This document shows positions 8,269 through 20,779 of a stretch of DNA of 24,000 nt, in pieces. The notes below the pieces were generated by a model, which was given only the letters and a program-made list of their open reading frames with translations, ran no database searches and was not told where the DNA came from. The translations under genes and the position numbers were made by a program. Origin of the DNA: Nitrososphaeria archaeon (GTDB lineage: Archaea > Thermoproteota > Nitrososphaeria > JACIWG01); NCBI GenBank assembly GCA_963752255.1, contig CAVVXT010000006.1, forward strand, positions 13,192 to 37,191, read 5' to 3'. Numbering within the stretch: the stretch's first letter is position 1; each line of letters opens with the position of its first letter.

Positions 8269-8337
8269 ATTGTATCATAGAAAAAGTTCAGCAAATATTT
8301 TTAAGAAAGAACACGGTTGACAGGCTTGTTGAACGAT

Positions 8338-9333
8338 ATGAAGTACGTCAGATTAGGCCGGTCAGGATTGAAAGTATCTCCGATAGCGATTGGTTGCATG
8401 TCCTTTGGAAACGCAGAGCCATGGATGGTCGAATTAGAGGACGCAAGGAAGGTTGTACGCAAAGCGCTCGACCTGGGGGTCAACTTCTTCGACACGGCGA
8501 ACGTCTACTCCTTAGGCAGGTCTGAGGAGGTAACAGGAGAACTTCTCAAAGACGTCCGAGAAGATGTGATAATTGCTACAAAGGTCTACAGTGTGATGGG
8601 GGAGAAGCCGAACCAGAGGGGTCTCTCACGTAAGCACATAATGAAACAGGTGAGAGATTCTCTGAGGAGGCTTAAAACGGATTACATCGACCTCTACCAG
8701 ACACACAGGTGGGACTACGAGACACCGATAGAGGAGACGCTGTCGACTTTAAACGACCTTGTGAGAAGTGGAACAGTTAGGTACATTGGGGCATCGAGCA
8801 TGTGGGCGTGGCAGCTTTCAAAAGCGCTGTACACAAGCGAAATCAAAGGCTACGAGAAGTTCACGAGCATGCAGAACAAGTGGAACCTGCTATACAGGGA
8901 AGAGGAAAGGGAGATGATACCGCTGTGCAAGGACCAGAACATAGGGGTTATCCCGTACAACCCCGTCGCAGCCGGCCTGCTGTCCGGACGCTATACGAAA
9001 GGTGGAAGAATTGAGATCGGCAGGAACGATTTGATGAGGCTTCAGCCGGACTATAGACTTGCCGCGTTATATCGAAAACCTTACGTTGATCCTCCTGAAA
9101 ACTCTGAAATCGTCAGAAGGGTTGCGGAAGTAGCGCAGAATAGGGGAGTGAAGCCGGTTCAGATCGCATTGGCATGGTTGCACCAGAAGGGGGCCACAGC
9201 GCCTATCATAGGGACTTCGAAGCCCGAGCACGTGCAAGAAGCGTTCGAATCGATGGAGATCAGCCTCTCCGACAAAGACATCACCTACATAGAAGAACCA
9301 TACGTGCCAAAAAAGATCGTAGGGCACGCATGA
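8338..9333 (+). CDS. Aldo/keto reductase (paralogue A)
   Basis: MKYVRLGRSGLKVSPIAIGCMSFG, GVNFFDTANVYSLGRSEE, IDLYQTHRWD and RYIGASSMWAWQ are canonical AKR motifs. The ORF track extends it to TTG 8317, but ATG 8338 gives the family-typical MKY start. Confidence 0.9.
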   Translation: MKYVRLGRSGLKVSPIAIGCMSFGNAEPWMVELEDARKVVRKALDLGVNFFDTANVYSLGRSEEVTGELLKDVREDVIIATKVYSVMGEKPNQRGLSRKHIMKQVRDSLRRLKTDYIDLYQTHRWDYETPIEETLSTLNDLVRSGTVRYIGASSMWAWQLSKALYTSEIKGYEKFTSMQNKWNLLYREEEREMIPLCKDQNIGVIPYNPVAAGLLSGRYTKGGRIEIGRNDLMRLQPDYRLAALYRKPYVDPPENSEIVRRVAEVAQNRGVKPVQIALAWLHQKGATAPIIGTSKPEHVQEAFESMEISLSDKDITYIEEPYVPKKIVGHA

Positions 9334-9689: not shown

Positions 9690-10949
9690 TCAAGGGGTAG
9701 TAGTTGACCTAGGTTTGTATCTCAAGAGAGCGGCAAAGCCTCCCAAAGCTGTGAGCTTTGCTTTTTCTTCCGACTCTGGAGATATCACCTCAACCCTTGC
9801 GTCTGTCTGTGAAGCCACATCCTCTAAGACATCTATTATGTCCTTCTCCTCCACCTCGTATTCAACCGCGTTGCACTTCTCGCATGGGCTCGATATCATT
9901 TCCTGTACAGTTTGAACCTTCTTCTCCTTATCCACTATCTTCGCCCTTGATAGTTCGCATCTTTTGCACATTACAACAATTTCAATCATATCTGTACTAT
10001 CTGTCACTAGTGCAACTTCCACTTCACCGTTCTTAAGCGCGTTCAACACTGAATCTAGGCCGCTAATAGCCAAACCGTCTTGCTTGCCCATATCTGCCAG
10101 AAGGCGCTGCACAGTCCTCTTCTCCTCTGGCGCACACATATTCTTCAGTGCCTCAGATGATTTGTCAAGCACCTCTCTCACTCCTTCTCTGCCGGCGGAT
10201 TGCGTATCAACTCTGCCCAGAAGCATATTCTTTAGCTCATAATGAAGGTAATCACCCTTTAAGAAATCCTCTTTCGTTGGTCCCGGTCCTCCAACTATCA
10301 ACGCCGTAACTTTATGGTTCTCGAGAAATGCCTTTGTTGCATGCTCCGCAACCCTGTGGAAATAGTATGTGAGTTCCATGTCGCGTTCTCTCTCGTACCT
10401 CCTCTGGCTCTCCCCGCCCTTTCCAGACTTCCCTGGAATCCCCGACGTGATATTTTCGATTAATTCGAGGCTTTCACCATTTAGTATCCCAAAGCTAGCC
10501 TCCTTTGAATCCATGGCGATAAGCCCCACAACTCTTTGGTCTCTCAGCATTTCCCTTAGCGGCTCTAACTGGAAATGGTCGTCAACCTCGTAAAGATAGG
10601 CGGTAATCGGCTCTGGTGGGACGACCTCTTCGACGTTCAAAACTTCGCTTTCCGGATCGTTCGCGACGAAAGTTCCAGCAAATATCGCGAGCCCATTCTC
10701 TGGAATTTCCTTCTGCAGCTTTAGACGCTGGATTACATTCTTGAGGGCGTCTTGAAGGCGATCCCTAACGCTCTCAGATTTCATGACAGCAGAATCAGAC
10801 TCCTCCTTGAGGATTGCGACTATCTCATCTATTGATTTCTCCCGAGGTATGTAGAGCGAGATGAACTCCATTCCCCTTCCCTCTTTGTCTGATAGCCACG
10901 CTATGAGCTTCCTCAGTTTGTGCTGTTTCACAGAATTAGTGGTTGCCAT
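9690..10949 (-). CDS. aRF1/eRF1-fold protein with non-canonical motifs (GGE instead of GGQ), a probable aRF1 paralogue
   Basis: All three aRF1 domains are recognisable: GRGMEFISLYIP, PPEPITAYLYEVDDHFQLEPL, IPGKSGKGGESQRRYERERD, LIVGGPGPTKEDF, a CxxC...CxxC minidomain, and C-terminal LGGFAALLRY. ATG 10949 gives the family-typical N-terminal length. The open frame continues up to GTG 10997. Confidence 0.85.
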   Translation of the reverse strand: MATTNSVKQHKLRKLIAWLSDKEGRGMEFISLYIPREKSIDEIVAILKEESDSAVMKSESVRDRLQDALKNVIQRLKLQKEIPENGLAIFAGTFVANDPESEVLNVEEVVPPEPITAYLYEVDDHFQLEPLREMLRDQRVVGLIAMDSKEASFGILNGESLELIENITSGIPGKSGKGGESQRRYERERDMELTYYFHRVAEHATKAFLENHKVTALIVGGPGPTKEDFLKGDYLHYELKNMLLGRVDTQSAGREGVREVLDKSSEALKNMCAPEEKRTVQRLLADMGKQDGLAISGLDSVLNALKNGEVEVALVTDSTDMIEIVVMCKRCELSRAKIVDKEKKVQTVQEMISSPCEKCNAVEYEVEEKDIIDVLEDVASQTDARVEVISPESEEKAKLTALGGFAALLRYKPRSTTTP

Positions 10950-11278
10950 CTGGCATCCGTGAAAATGCATTACTTTTTCAGTAACCAAATTTGACACCCC
11001 AACATTCAGTTACGGTAGAGACTAATTTATTAGTTTCCCAGAATTAGAGCCAATTGGTTCCACTTTCAAAGTTTGGTTTCAGACTACTTATTGCGCGCAT
11101 GTGGAAAGATCCGTCACTTAAAATATGCGACATAGAAGATCTATCTATTACAGAGCACCAACGGACTAAAGGTATCTGCATTTAATTAGGGTCAGAAACG
11201 CAAAATGTTGTTTCTTAATCGTGAACTTGACAAAATACTTAAACGGAAGCGCGGGCGATTTCATTTGATCATCAATAT

Positions 11279-12084
11279 TTACAAAGGCAAAGCTCCTATG
11301 AAGTGACCGATCAAGAATCCGGCAAGACCTGCGGTCAGCCCGATTGCCGCCATCTGCAAGCCGATCCTCCATAGAGAGCCCACGGTGGTCTTCGCTTCGT
11401 AGACCCCGATGAAGAAGAGGGCGACGCCGCTTAAAATCACTGATGCTTCCGTTCCGGTGAGAATATTTGTTCCAACGAAAAGGTATGGTATCAGAGGTAT
11501 GAAAGACCCAAATACGGTGGAAGATCCGACAACTAAGGCACTGCGCCTCGCTTCAGACTTGTCAACAGGCGCAAGATCGAGTTCGTACACATCATGAATT
11601 CAAGCATCGCCTTTGGGTTCTTAGCTATACGTTCCGTCAAATCTTCAAGTTCTTTCCCTTCATAGCCCCAACCTCTGAAGATCTGCCTCACCTCTTCCAG
11701 TTCGATTTCGGGGACATCTTTCATCTCTTGACTTTCTCTATCCGCTTCCTTTAGATAGACTCGTCGCCTCGCCGCGGTGGAGGTGTAGGCGACAGCTCCC
11801 ATCGAAATGGACTCGGCTCCAAGAGCGGCCAGAGCTGCAACGAAGAAAATTCGGACATCGGTTGTTGCCGCAGTCAACCCCAGGAGAATACCCAGTACGT
11901 TTACCAGACCATCCTGACTCCCAAGGATAAAGTTGGAGAGGAGAGTGGGGCGCGAGTGTCTTTCACTCTTGACTTTGGCACGTACAGTCTTCGTTGGATT
12001 TGCGTTTCCTGCGTTCCTTTCAATGCTTTTCAGATATTCGTCAACTGAATTCAACCGTGTTTCCTCCAATAGTTTCTTGGCCAA
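11279..12084 (-). pseudogene. VIT1/CCC1 family iron/manganese transporter split by a frameshift
   Basis: The N-terminal ORF 11533-12084 (GSQDGLVNVLGILLG, ESISMGAVAY, KNPKAMLEFMM) and the C-terminal ORF 11279-11590 (YELDLAPVDKSEARRSALVVGSS...IPLIPYLF...) are contiguous parts of one VIT1 protein. The frame changes at about 11588-11591. Confidence 0.8.
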
Positions 12085-12470: not shown

Positions 12471-13629
12471 CTACCTATGAGTAAACTCGTAGGCTTCTTG
12501 CTTCACAGGAACAAACTTGCTTATCCGCCTGCGTTGGACAAGTAGAGGCAGTTCCTCCACACGGGCCTGTTCCAGACCCGCAGCCAGAATATTGCGTGCC
12601 GCATTCACGTCCCTGTCGAGGACGAGACTGCAGTTCGGGCACGAGTGCGTCCGTTCTTCCAGTCCTTTCGGAACCAGCTCTCCGCATCCAGAGCATTTCT
12701 GCGATGTCCCACTTGGGTTGACGAGTATCACTCGTCCACCACGCCTTTCTGCCTTGTAGGCAGTTAGTCGGCGTAGTTGACCCCAAGAGGCATCCATTAT
12801 TGCCGATGCCAGATTGTGGTTCTTCACCATGTTCGGAATCTTCAGGTCTTCGAAGACGATGGTCGAGTATTCAGATGCCAGATTAGCAGAGACTTTATGT
12901 GCGACATCAAGACGTTGGTTCCGCACCTTTCTCCAAGCCTTGGCGAGCAAGACCTTGGCCTTTTCTCTGTTGAGCCGAGCCTTTCTTCTTCCTTGACAGG
13001 CGCCTTTGAAGCGACGTGATTCTGAGTGACGGAGTTGTCGAGATGTCGTGGATTCTCGAAGACTCTGCCGTTACTCAGAGTCGCAAGATTCACTACCCCA
13101 AGGTCTACTCCGACTGGTTTGCCCTCTTCTGTGGCTCGAATCGGTTTGGAGATTCTGTTTCAGCCGAGATGCAGGCATACCACTGGTCGATATCCCTGAT
13201 GATGGTGCAAGTCTTCGGCGTTCCTTCAATCGGCTCGGTGCATTTTCGCTTTGACCAGACCTATCTTTGAAAGCCGGAGTCTGTCTCGCCAACAATTTTA
13301 AACCCACCGAGTTGAGGATACTTGAACGAGTTGTATCTGTCTTTCCGTTTGAACTTGGGGTATCTTGAAAGCCCGCGTAGAACGCCCCATATGCTTTGTC
13401 CAATCTGAAGCACGACGTCTTGCAAGACCTGGGAGTGAACTCCCATCAAGAACTTGTTACCACGGCGGAACGCAGTGAGGGCCCTCTTCTGTTCGAACGC
13501 CTTGGCACTTGGTATCGAATCCTATCATCCAGCAAGGTCGTTGTAGAGGAGCCTGCAAGTCTCAAGAGTCTCTATCATCAATCTGTTCTGAGTCTTGGTT
13601 GGATAGAGCCTGAACTTGTAGGTAATCAA
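12471..13629 (-). pseudogene. tnpB: tnpB (IS605 OrfB / RuvC-like RNA-guided nuclease family), inactivated
   Basis: Homologous pieces lie in three frames:
- ITYKFRLYPTKTQ...LYNDLAG, then TGA TAG (13522-13527)
- HSQVLQDV...YPKFKRKDRYNSF
- LRLSKIGLVKAKMHR
- PIEGTPKTCTIIRDIDQWYA
- VGVDLGVVNLATLSNGRVFENPRHL
- RRKARLNREKAKVLLAKAW...IVFEDL...CSGCG...CPNCS...DRDVNAARNI. Confidence 0.85.
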
Positions 13630-14024
13630 ATCCCTTTCTGCCCCGCAATATATCTCTGGATGGTTTCTGAAGACACGTGCCCATACGTGGAGACAAAGTA
13701 ACTTCTTGACCAAAGTGTCGGTAGTCTTGACCGAAGATGTGGGAACTCTCTTCGTAACTCGTGGGAAGTGAATCCCTTCAAAGCAGCCACTATTCTGTTC
13801 GGGGTGGCAGTAGGTTTGGCTTTGACGAAGATGTGGACGTGGTCTGACATCGTCTCCAAAGAGATTATTTCGCAGTCTATTGATTTGGACTTCTGTTCGA
13901 GTAACGCACGAAGTCTGGTTTCCACTCCGCCAACCAGCACTGGCCTGCGATATTTCGTACACCACACGAAGTGGTAGTTCATGAAATGAACTGAAGTCTG
14001 CGAAGCGTCGTATCCCTTTGGCAT
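13626..14024 (-). CDS. tnpA: IS200/IS605 family Y1 (HUH) transposase TnpA
   Basis: At 132 aa the ORF is intact. It has NYHFVWCTKYRRPVL, the HUH motif in SDHVHIFV, and the catalytic-Tyr region SETIQRYIAGQ. Confidence 0.9.
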   Translation of the reverse strand: MPKGYDASQTSVHFMNYHFVWCTKYRRPVLVGGVETRLRALLEQKSKSIDCEIISLETMSDHVHIFVKAKPTATPNRIVAALKGFTSHELRREFPHLRSRLPTLWSRSYFVSTYGHVSSETIQRYIAGQKGI

Positions 14025-19634: not shown

Positions 19635-19783
19635 CCGTTTGGAGGATTTATCGAAGGACTTCAGTTTTGGCGCATGAGCATAATATGCGATCAGCTATGA
19701 CGATTTTAAGACTCTCAGTTGTACCATAGAAGTTCAGCTAATTCTTTTAAGGAAGAACAAAGTTGGCATGCTTGTTGAACGAT

Positions 19784-20779
19784 ATGAAGTATGTCAGATT
19801 AGGCTGGTCAGGATTGAAAGTGTCACCGATCGCGATTGGATGCTGGCATTTTGGAAACGCTGAGCCATGGATGGTCGAAAAAGAGGACGCAAGGAAGGTT
19901 GTACGTAAGGCGCTCGACCTGGGGGTAAACTTCTTCGATACCGCGAACGTCTACTCCTTAGGTAGGTCTGAGGAGATCACAGGAGAGCTTCTCAAAGACG
20001 TCCGAGAGGATGTAATAATTGCTACAAAGGTCTTCAACCCGATGGGGGAGAAGCCGAACCAGAGGGGTCTTTCAAGGAAGCACATAATGGGACAGGTGAA
20101 GGGTTCTCTGAAAAGGCTTCAAACGGATTACATCGACCTCTACCAGACGCATAGGTGGGACTATGAAACATCAATTGATGAAACTCTTTCAACCCTGAAC
20201 GATCTTGTTAGAAGTGGTTTAGTCCGATATATTGGGGGTTCTAGTATGTGGGCTTGGCAGTTTTCTAAGGCTTTGTATGCGAGTGAAATCAAGGGTTATG
20301 AGAAATTTACAAGCATGCAGGACAAGTGGAATCTGCTGTACAGGGAAGAGGAAAGGGAGATGATACCGCTGTGCAAGGACCAGAAGATAGGAATAATACC
20401 TTACAATCCCACCGCAGTCGGCCTGCTGTCAGGACGCTATATGAAAGGTGGAAGAATTGAGATCGGTAGGAACGATATGACGAGGCTTCAACCGGACTCT
20501 AAACTTGCCGGTTTAGTCTATAAACCTTACGTCGAACCTCCTGAAAACTCTGAAATCGTCAGAAGGGTTGCGGAAGTAGCGCAGGACAGGGGGGTGAAGC
20601 CGGTTCAGATCGCGTTGGCATGGCTGTTCCAGAAGGGGGCCACAGCGCCTATCATAGGGACTTCGAAGCCCGAGCACGTGCAGGAAGCGGTCGAATCGAT
20701 GGATATCAGCCTCTCCGACAAAGACATCGCCTACATGGAAGAATCATACGTGCCAAAACCGATCGTAGGGCATGCATGA
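19784..20779 (+). CDS. Aldo/keto reductase (paralogue B)
   Basis: MKYVRLGWSGLKVSPIAIGCWHFG... is collinear with paralogue A over its full length. The ORF track extends it to TTG 19763. Confidence 0.9.
   Translation: MKYVRLGWSGLKVSPIAIGCWHFGNAEPWMVEKEDARKVVRKALDLGVNFFDTANVYSLGRSEEITGELLKDVREDVIIATKVFNPMGEKPNQRGLSRKHIMGQVKGSLKRLQTDYIDLYQTHRWDYETSIDETLSTLNDLVRSGLVRYIGGSSMWAWQFSKALYASEIKGYEKFTSMQDKWNLLYREEEREMIPLCKDQKIGIIPYNPTAVGLLSGRYMKGGRIEIGRNDMTRLQPDSKLAGLVYKPYVEPPENSEIVRRVAEVAQDRGVKPVQIALAWLFQKGATAPIIGTSKPEHVQEAVESMDISLSDKDIAYMEESYVPKPIVGHA

Follow-up and report, generated by a model that had tools for sequence, protein, structure and literature searches.

A Bathyarchaeia clade of aRF1-family proteins with a GGxSQ loop and altered decoding motifs

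The gene and its family

The stretch of DNA considered here, hereafter the window, is 24,000 nucleotides long and comes from an assembly labelled as a Nitrososphaeria archaeon (GCA_963752255.1, contig CAVVXT010000006.1, positions 13,192 to 37,191). On its minus strand lies a gene for a protein of the archaeal release factor family aRF1, hereafter the variant, in which the glutamine of the GGQ motif and the motifs that read the stop codon have been replaced. The gene is flanked by an aldo/keto reductase gene and by a split VIT1 gene, with a degraded TnpB 1.5 kb off (Table 1). An upstream GTG start at 10997 is a possible alternative to the ATG; most homologues begin MATTNS, and most are 414 amino acids long. 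A first-pass annotation, made from the sequence alone, had described a three-domain aRF1-type protein with GGE, VMKS, YEVDDHF and GME at the four functional positions, and all of these motifs lie exactly where it had placed them. In a HMMER pairwise alignment to Halobacterium aRF1 (4af1) GME is paired with GTQ, VMKS with NIKS, YEVDDHF with YHCDSAF, and GGESQRRYER with GGQSAQRFAR.

Table 1. Coordinates of the variant aRF1 gene, its domains and motifs, and neighbouring features in the window
Feature	Position	Strand	Remarks
Variant aRF1 coding sequence, 419 amino acids plus TGA stop (9690-9692)	9690..10949	-	ATG start at 10949
N domain, residues 1-135, former stop-codon-reading domain	10545..10949	-	Pfam eRF1_1, 50.8 bits
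G26-M27-E28 at the GT[S/E] position	10866..10874	-	aligned with GTQ of Halobacterium aRF1
V55-M56-K57-S58 at the NIKS position	10776..10787	-	loop shorter by one residue than that of canonical aRF1
Y120-E-V122-D-D-H-F126 at the YxCxxxF position, Cys replaced by Val	10572..10592	-	aligned with YHCDSAF
M domain, residues 136-270, reaches the peptidyl-transferase centre	10140..10544	-	Pfam eRF1_2, 120.7 bits
Catalytic-type loop G173-K-S-G-K-G-G-E-S-Q-R-R-Y-E-R-E-R-D190	10380..10433	-	best-conserved segment of the family
GGxSQ motif G178-G179-E180-S181-Q182	10404..10418	-	G178-G179-E180 ggc ggg gag 10410-10418; E180 gag 10410-10412; Q182 cag 10404-10406
C domain, residues 271-419, aEF1-alpha-binding in aRF1 and Pelota	9693..10139	-	Pfam eRF1_3, 53.9 bits
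Residue 296 (Ser in GLAISGLD)	10062-10064		column of greatest variability in the 121 closest proteins
CxxC...CxxC zinc-ribbon insert (C328, C331, C356, C359)	9873..9968	-	sequence motif
C-terminal G-G-F-A-A-L-L-R-Y motif	9717..9743	-	sequence motif
VIT1/CCC1-family gene, just upstream of the variant gene	11279-12084	-	frameshifted; overlapping ORFs 11533-12084 (profile positions 1-119) and 11279-11590 (positions 121-214)
Degraded IS605-type TnpB	12471-13965	-	Cas12f1-like TNB, OrfB_IS605 and HTH_OrfB_IS605 in separate broken ORFs
Aldo/keto reductase paralogue	8317-9333	+	87% identical to the other copy over 338 residues
Aldo/keto reductase paralogue	19763-20779	+

Profile searches and structure prediction both place the protein in the aRF1 family. 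The window protein matches positions 2-402 of TIGR03676, the aRF1 equivalog model, with 382.3 bits where the cutoff is 234.7, and matches the Pfam models eRF1_1, eRF1_2 and eRF1_3 above their cutoffs, whereas the Pelota model TIGR00111 gives only 74.1 bits against a cutoff of 177.65 and spans no more than residues 125-412. The N domain scores 50.8 bits on eRF1_1 (41-46 in two other variant proteins, 69-79 in canonical relatives) and the C domain 53.9 bits on eRF1_3, where canonical aRF1 reaches 78-88, whilst the M domain is on a par with canonical aRF1 on eRF1_2 (120.7 against 119-126 bits). An AlphaFold model, with a mean predicted local distance difference test score (pLDDT) of 79 and a confident C domain (about 77-90 over most of its length), is best superposed on Halobacterium aRF1 and human eRF1 with template modelling (TM) scores of 0.72-0.73, the values being 0.44-0.46 for Balon (8v9j, 8v9k, 8v9l) and 0.26-0.42 for Pelota. 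The view that the sequence is aRF1-like and not Pelota-like is thus borne out by profile scores and predicted fold alike. Within the classical aRF1 clade the window protein is divergent, with the three domains and the profile score of that family and without its GGQ, NIKS, YxCxxxF and GTx motifs; nor does the variant have the marks of vertical inheritance, namely grouping with the host lineage and a housekeeping neighbourhood.

Within the C domain the zinc-ribbon cysteines are invariant in the alignment designated A3, with the insert missing from four loci (L065, L176, L178, L179). The counterpart of the C-terminal motif in aRF1, AFGGIAAILRY, is part of the region that contacts the GTPase partner (PMC2613156).

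A homologue search of 5.8 billion proteins found more than 3,000 relatives, and motifs were counted in the best 120, which are 84-95% identical to the window protein and which, where named by NCBI, belong to Candidatus Bathyarchaeia. NIKS is found in none of these 120 proteins but in all of 240 canonical relatives, and the Cys of YxCxxxF has become Val, Ile or Ala in 113 of the 120; the GT[S/E] position reads GTE in 239 of the 240 canonical relatives. The pattern of motif loss is repeated in 48 loci from GTDB and about 60 from JGI, so that NIKS, the Cys of YxCxxxF and GTx are missing from more than 200 homologues of peat and soil Bathyarchaeia overall. In a scan of one genome per GTDB species the variant family was found in about 50 assemblies, nearly all of them metagenome-assembled genomes (MAGs) of Bathyarchaeia from peat and soil (SPRUCE, Microflora Danica, Stordalen, SMAG), one being a complete 2.35-Mb chromosome (OY970176.1); the approximately 60 further loci from JGI include one on a 2.46-Mb contig. 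The ratio of nonsynonymous to synonymous substitution (dN/dS) has a median of 0.167 at dS of about 1, so that the family is under purifying selection. A sequencing error or a private pseudogene is therefore ruled out, as the motif states are common to hundreds of homologues, and here the first-pass annotation was right. It had also counted four independent substitutions; these are genuine, but they are inherited traits of one clade and not four separate events in the window gene.

A number of records that carry the variant are labelled as Nitrososphaeria, Acidoferrum, Sulfotelmatobacter or Zixibacteria (L014 in JBEKIG01, L054 in DATBXD01, L020, L024, L048 and L081 in SMAG bins, and P0027). These are most likely mis-binned or mislabelled contigs of Bathyarchaeia.

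Decoding positions and the catalytic-type loop

Rates of change were compared over 48 aligned variant genes, made up of the GTDB loci, two metagenome loci and the window gene, with the fourfold-degenerate third positions, which average 11.4 nucleotide changes on the tree of these sequences, as the neutral yardstick. The N and I equivalents of NIKS (residues 55 and 56) have changed 20 and 21 times and are among the seven most variable columns, the residues found there including Asp, Glu, Gly and Thr, and the T equivalent of GTx (residue 27) has changed 16 times between the states M, K, T, R, L, A and I. The NIKS loop has lost one residue across the entire variant family in a MAFFT alignment, and changes per column are on average more numerous in the N domain than in either of the other two. 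At the YxCxxxF position V122 is found in 46 of the 48 sequences and H125 and F126 are conserved; Nitrososphaerales relatives have Y-x-C-D-D-H-F/Y. As the N, I and T equivalents change near the neutral rate, it is very unlikely that the variant reads stop codons in the canonical way; the first-pass annotation had likewise proposed that it does not.

Among the 121 closest proteins the column that varies most lies elsewhere, in the C domain at residue 296 (Y39, S25, A20, C18, T6, K5, W5, R1), and the frameshifts of two loci (L062 and L067) adjoin it.

The decoding positions also bear on whether the variant could be a release factor of altered or narrowed codon specificity that works beside a canonical aRF1, serving one stop codon or a special context, or tuning readthrough by competition with the canonical protein. 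The eRF1s of organisms with variant genetic codes do change near NIKS, YxCxxxF and GTx (PMC2613156), residues K57, S58, Y120, H125 and F126 of the variant are still largely conserved, and two aRF1 genes were found in 4.3% of sampled archaeal genomes (n = 81) in a 2025 PNAS paper (PMC12626013). However, residues that contact the codon should become fixed, yet here they vary between close relatives that use the same stop codons, and the window holds no tRNA gene, no Rfam match and no pyrrolysine or selenocysteine machinery, so that this explanation appears quite improbable. Reassignment of a stop codon in the host is not indicated either, with ORFs in the window ending in TAA, TAG and TGA.

The fate of the M domain is very different from that of the N domain in the same 48 sequences, as it has the fewest mean changes per column and the most invariant columns of the three domains. 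Within the loop G173-D190 residue 180, the position of the classical Gln, has changed eight times and the other positions between zero and three times. Among the 120 closest proteins residue 180 is Q in 47, S in 38, E in 14, W in 13, M in 7 and A in 1, with S181-Q182 following in all 120; in the 48 aligned genes it is S34, Q8, E3, W1, A1 and M1 with S181-Q182 in every one, and in the JGI loci S40, Q14, W4, A2 and M1 with S181-Q182 in 61 of 62. The codons seen are TCA, TCG, TCT, TCC and AGT for Ser, CAG and CAA for Gln, and GAG, TGG, ATG and GCG. Canonical aRF1 of Bathyarchaeia and Nitrososphaerales has GGQ-S-A in all 240 proteins, the equivalent of residue 182 thus being Ala. Members that branch early in the variant clade (L063, L048, P0127, P0150) have GGQSQ, and it is therefore likely that the loop passed from GGQSA through GGQSQ to GGxSQ.

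It had been concluded from the change of GGQ to GGE that the protein releases no peptide, and this inference is unjustified. E180 is the variable x of a GGxSQ loop in which Gln182 is invariant, and the catalytic Gln seems to have been displaced by two residues and not lost. A GGxSQ motif has already been described for the VLRF-1-type (Vms1-like) relatives of aRF1, in which that Gln is held to be catalytic (PMC6514570); in yeast Vms1p the motif is GGSQ, with G292 and Q295 both required for function (bioRxiv 10.1101/301341; PMC6514570).

The association of a missing classical Gln with a Gln at +2 is not confined to the variant clade. Within a set of 141 aRF1 representatives, clustered at 50% identity, a +2 Gln is found in 22 of the 26 without the classical Gln but in only 24 of the 115 that have it (Fisher p = 1.6e-9, uncorrected for relatedness). 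Many of the 22 retain NIKS and YxCxxxF and have GGW, GGM or GGF followed by S-Q, and such GG[W/M/F]SQ proteins with decoding motifs score 433-482 bits on TIGR03676 against 473-527 for canonical aRF1; six tested proteins with GGW, GGM, GGF or GGA before SQ score 393-482 bits. The canonical-looking proteins with GGxSQ are P0147, P0149, P0159, P0161, P0169, P0172, P0177, P0183, P0199, P0201, P0206, P0208, P0211, P0219, P0238, P0240, P0243, P0255 and P0266, and NIKS and YxCxxxF are intact in those that were examined. Many GGxSQ aRF1s carry an intein precisely between x and S, which is the site of the GGQ|S intein of Nitrososphaerota.

Two further accounts of residue 180 were considered and set aside. 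A past TAG (pyrrolysine) codon is not indicated, with the Ser codons TCA, TCG, TCT, TCC and AGT dominating and no in-frame stop seen there, and family-wide positive selection is not indicated either, since the codon positions of residue 180 show 7-9 nucleotide changes, which is near neutral. Closer to the window, in a crown clade (L012-L018, L042, L076 and the window gene) at dS of only 0.07-0.19 to the window gene and dN/dS of 0.22-0.44, residue 180 has moved between the states A (GCG), E (GAG), M (ATG), S (TCG) and Q (CAG), whereas outside this clade the family retains Ser180 through synonymous turnover between TCN and AGY codons.

Origin and genomic setting

A neighbour-joining bootstrap tree recovers the variant clade as monophyletic (100), with a long stem, next to Nitrososphaerales and the P0124 group (74; 99 with P0138) and not with the canonical aRF1s of Bathyarchaeia. 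Identity of the window protein is 53% to Nitrososphaerales aRF1 (range 49-54%) and 41% to canonical Bathyarchaeia aRF1, and derived residues common to the variant and Nitrososphaerales (C/V-D-D-H-F, RRYER, MELTYYF and GREGVRE) are consistent with the tree. The canonical Bathyarchaeia gene (of the P0129 type) has GGQ, NIKS and YRCDARF and is found in peat MAGs from the same projects and samples as the variant. It always lies in a housekeeping block of M50 peptidase, AA kinase, aRF1, rpS11, DnaG and GAPDH, whereas the variant gene lies outside the AA-kinase/aRF1/rpS11 block, in non-housekeeping neighbourhoods that change between genomes.

The two genes also differ in constraint and in copy number. 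Around the window gene dN/dS is 0.22-0.44, whilst pairs of canonical genes give 0.042-0.048 in three of the four measurable cases and 0.11 in the near-identical fourth, and the variant family as a whole evolves at about 3.6 times the dN/dS of canonical aRF1. Five assemblies have two variant loci each, 71-91% identical to the window protein (L015 and L029 in JBEKNP01, L019 and L037 in PLYI01, L026 and L049 in CAWGZR01, L035 and L072 in CAVTBV01, L020 and L081 in DATIXS01), which points to duplication inside the variant clade. Pseudogene copies are also found: L081 (1265-2492, in an Illumina MAG) has an in-frame stop and frameshifts, and L069 (3001-4236) is 95% identical and frameshifted. Four loci in nanopore MAGs (L055, L062, L066, L067) have single-base frameshifts that may be error or decay.

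Since tree, variable context, copy number, decay and dN/dS all fit, the variant is most likely an accessory paralogue, restricted to Bathyarchaeia of peat and soil, that comes from an aRF1 of the Nitrososphaeria type, was acquired by horizontal transfer and then diverged rapidly. It might be asked whether such a gene is simply a functionless relic, a decaying duplicate on its way to being lost, given the pseudogene copies L081 and L069 and the raised dN/dS around the window. This is highly improbable, as about 50 genomes at species level and hundreds of contigs from metagenomes carry intact ORFs, dN/dS stays well under 1 where dS is about 1, 62 columns including the whole loop are invariant, and Ser180 has been held across TCN and AGY codons.

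The immediate neighbours of the window gene are those of a flexible stretch of genome, as the degraded TnpB marks it. The VIT1/CCC1-family gene is either a pseudogene or split by a sequencing error, and the two aldo/keto reductase paralogues lie 10 kb apart and flank the variant region.

The closest canonical relatives of the variant, aRF1 proteins of Nitrososphaerota (P0121, P0122, P0123, P0125, P0128, P0131), have inteins at two functional motifs, YM|C, where the Cys of YxCxxxF is the +1 residue, and GGQ|S, with some proteins having both and reaching 1187-1452 amino acids. That the substitutions of the variant are intein scars or a form of immunity to homing endonucleases is speculation, as inteins target conserved motifs in any case and the coincidence has no independent weight. 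No literature on aRF1 inteins was found.

Proposed role and comparison with known systems

The explanation that we favour, with a probability of roughly 40%, is that the variant is a paralogue of aRF1 which was gained by horizontal transfer, is accessory and works on ribosomes without regard to stop codons, in release or rescue, through delivery by aEF1-alpha. It has retained the body with three domains and the shape of a tRNA, including the C domain for docking with aEF1-alpha, and has kept the loop that reaches the peptidyl-transferase centre under the strongest constraint, whilst GTx, NIKS and the Cys of YxCxxxF were lost and now drift. In the loop, the first Gln of an ancestral GGQSQ may have become dispensable with Gln182 taking its catalytic place. 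aEF1-alpha-GTP could then bring the variant to the A site whatever the codon, for example on ribosomes stalled on truncated or damaged mRNA, and Gln182 would promote release of the nascent chain, either by peptidyl-tRNA hydrolysis or, in the manner of Vms1/ANKZF1, by cutting the 3' end of the tRNA, with a functional outcome that would resemble bacterial ArfB. The motif and selection patterns, the phylogenetic position, the fold and the genomic context are what the analysis shows; ribosome binding, catalysis by Gln182, a role in rescue and coexistence with a canonical aRF1 we infer.

A number of observations weigh against this explanation. In the superposed AlphaFold model Gln182 pairs with Ala187 of eRF1 where the helix after the loop begins, so catalysis by this residue would require the loop to re-register, and the MAFFT alignment has no insertion that lengthens the loop. 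A +2 Gln alone is not diagnostic, with GGQSQ found in ordinary aRF1 too, and there are aRF1 clusters without either glutamine, namely P0139 (GGW-SA), P0162 (GGE-SA) and P0228 (GGS-SA). Among the variant loci compared there are no conserved neighbouring genes that hint at a rescue pathway. Finally, among about 60 records with the variant and about 25 with a canonical aRF1 no contig or assembly with both was seen, no whole-genome shotgun prefix is common to variant and canonical records and no fetched locus has two aRF1 genes, a negative that is weak because it covers the best 120 clusters with at most 15 members each and because the peptide patterns of the genome scan do not match the canonical Bathyarchaeia gene. 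As a separate observation, P0139, which reaches 482 bits on TIGR03676, has NIKS and YxCxxxF intact.

The pattern of co-occurrence could be taken to mean that variant-bearing Bathyarchaeia have no other aRF1, and that the variant is their sole working release factor, terminating at TAA, TAG and TGA by means of the displaced Gln and a novel form of stop recognition that dispenses with NIKS, YxCxxxF and GTx. The lists of variant-bearing records without a canonical gene include contigs of 2.3-2.5 Mb, the complete or near-complete genomes that have the canonical gene (contigs of 2,363,725, 2,386,621 and 3,074,791 bp) are absent from the variant lists, some factor must read all three stop codons that are used in the window, and other aRF1s with GG[W/M/F]SQ look like bona fide release factors. 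This is nonetheless unlikely. An essential reader of stop codons is difficult to reconcile with decoding positions that drift near-neutrally, with Asp, Glu, Gly and Thr at the 'N' position, with a dN/dS 3.6 times that of canonical aRF1, with duplicates, pseudogene copies and members that have no zinc ribbon, and with a gene outside the conserved aRF1 neighbourhood; the xenologous origin and long stem suggest that the protein was redundant when its motifs were lost.

A more serious contender, though still a doubtful one, is the reading of the first-pass annotation, a non-catalytic A-site factor that blocks the site or recruits splitting factors in the manner of Pelota or Balon, with the loop serving only as an anchor at the peptidyl-transferase centre. 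The classical Gln is missing from the window gene and most of the family, the decoding motifs have been lost, and there is a precedent in Balon, an aeRF1 homologue without NIKS or GGQ that is found in the A site with an EF-Tu-type GTPase (PMC10901736); Balon structures were retrieved by the fold search and the Balon-family model NF052289 has a weak match to the window protein of 35.5 bits. That match is, however, far under the cutoff of 320 and canonical aRF1 matches equally (26-31 bits). It is the loop that argues most against a plug, as it is the best-conserved segment of the variant with an invariant Ser-Gln that fits GGxSQ, whereas Balon and Pelota have a replaced or truncated loop (PMC10901736; PMC2613156), and a plug would not be expected to hold G-G, S-Q and R-R-Y-E-R invariant with only residue 180 free.

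The proposed stop-independent release by an aRF1 paralogue would be of interest for several reasons. The GGQ motif is taken to be universal among class-I release factors (PMC2613156), and a clade of full-length aRF1 with three domains that can do without the classical Gln but has an invariant +2 Gln challenges that assumed invariance. Should Gln182 prove catalytic, the register of the loop would be more plastic than has been assumed and a loop of the VLRF-1/Vms1 type would have arisen more than once. The protein would also be a candidate for a missing archaeal activity, that of stop-independent release or rescue on whole ribosomes alongside Pelota, and the clade provides a natural experiment in the repurposing of a release factor after horizontal transfer. 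On a practical note, these genes are now annotated as "peptide chain release factor aRF-1" and can mislead marker-gene and genetic-code analyses.

No literature was found on this Bathyarchaeia clade or on GGxSQ in a three-domain or classical aRF1. Among known proteins the closest are the aRF1s of Nitrososphaerales (such as P0123 and P0276), which are like the variant in their three domains, length, zinc ribbon and C-terminal GG-x-A-A-L-L-R-Y; they differ in that the variant is without NIKS, the Cys of YxCxxxF and the Thr of GTx, its classical-Gln site is variable, and a +2 Gln replaces Ala.

Extra full-length genes of the aRF1 family are already known in Methanosarcina. In Methanosarcina barkeri one of two aRF1 copies recognised each of the three stop codons in vitro (an earlier study cited in PMC12626013), and the roles of the two copies in Methanosarcina acetivorans were, according to PMC12626013, not investigated. 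Whilst aRF1-2 of Methanosarcina is an extra copy too, the Bathyarchaeia clade is unrelated to it, being derived from a Nitrososphaeria-type aRF1.

In its loop the variant is most like the VLRF-1 clade, which does not read stop codons and has GGxSQ in aVLRF-1 and acVLRF-1 and GGSQ (GxxQ) in Vms1p. The architecture is another matter, as aVLRF-1 has an N-terminal coiled coil and no C-terminal domain, the N domain is missing from acVLRF-1, and the substrate of Vms1 is the split 60S subunit, whereas the variant retains all three aRF1 domains. The profile models agree, with Pfam acVLRF1 giving 35.2 bits in the variant against 41-42 in canonical aRF1 and NF041024 giving 33.9 bits against a cutoff of 125, so that across the acVLRF1 models the variant (34-35 bits) does not rise above canonical aRF1 (32-42). 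As the variant has neither the architecture of VLRF-1 nor a match to its models, the likeness in the loop is convergence and not membership.

Pelota/Dom34 is a member of the same superfamily that enters the A site without reading a stop codon and is delivered by a GTPase of the EF1-alpha type, as may also be the case for the variant. The N domain of Pelota, however, is Sm-like, and the tip of its M domain is truncated and has no GGQ-like loop (PMC2613156, PMC6514570), whereas the variant has an N domain of the eRF1 type and a full-length, highly conserved loop. Balon and Rv2629 are aeRF1 homologues that, like the variant, are without NIKS and the classical GGQ, and Balon binds the A site independently of the codon (PMC10901736) in a way that the variant possibly does too; Balon is bacterial, though, and about 10% identical to aeRF1, its lasso loop, HP motif and beta-hairpin taking the place of aRF1 elements. 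ArfB and mitochondrial ICT1 would be functional analogues only, since they achieve stop-independent release by a Gln loop but have an unrelated bacterial release factor fold and a true GGQ (PMC6514570).

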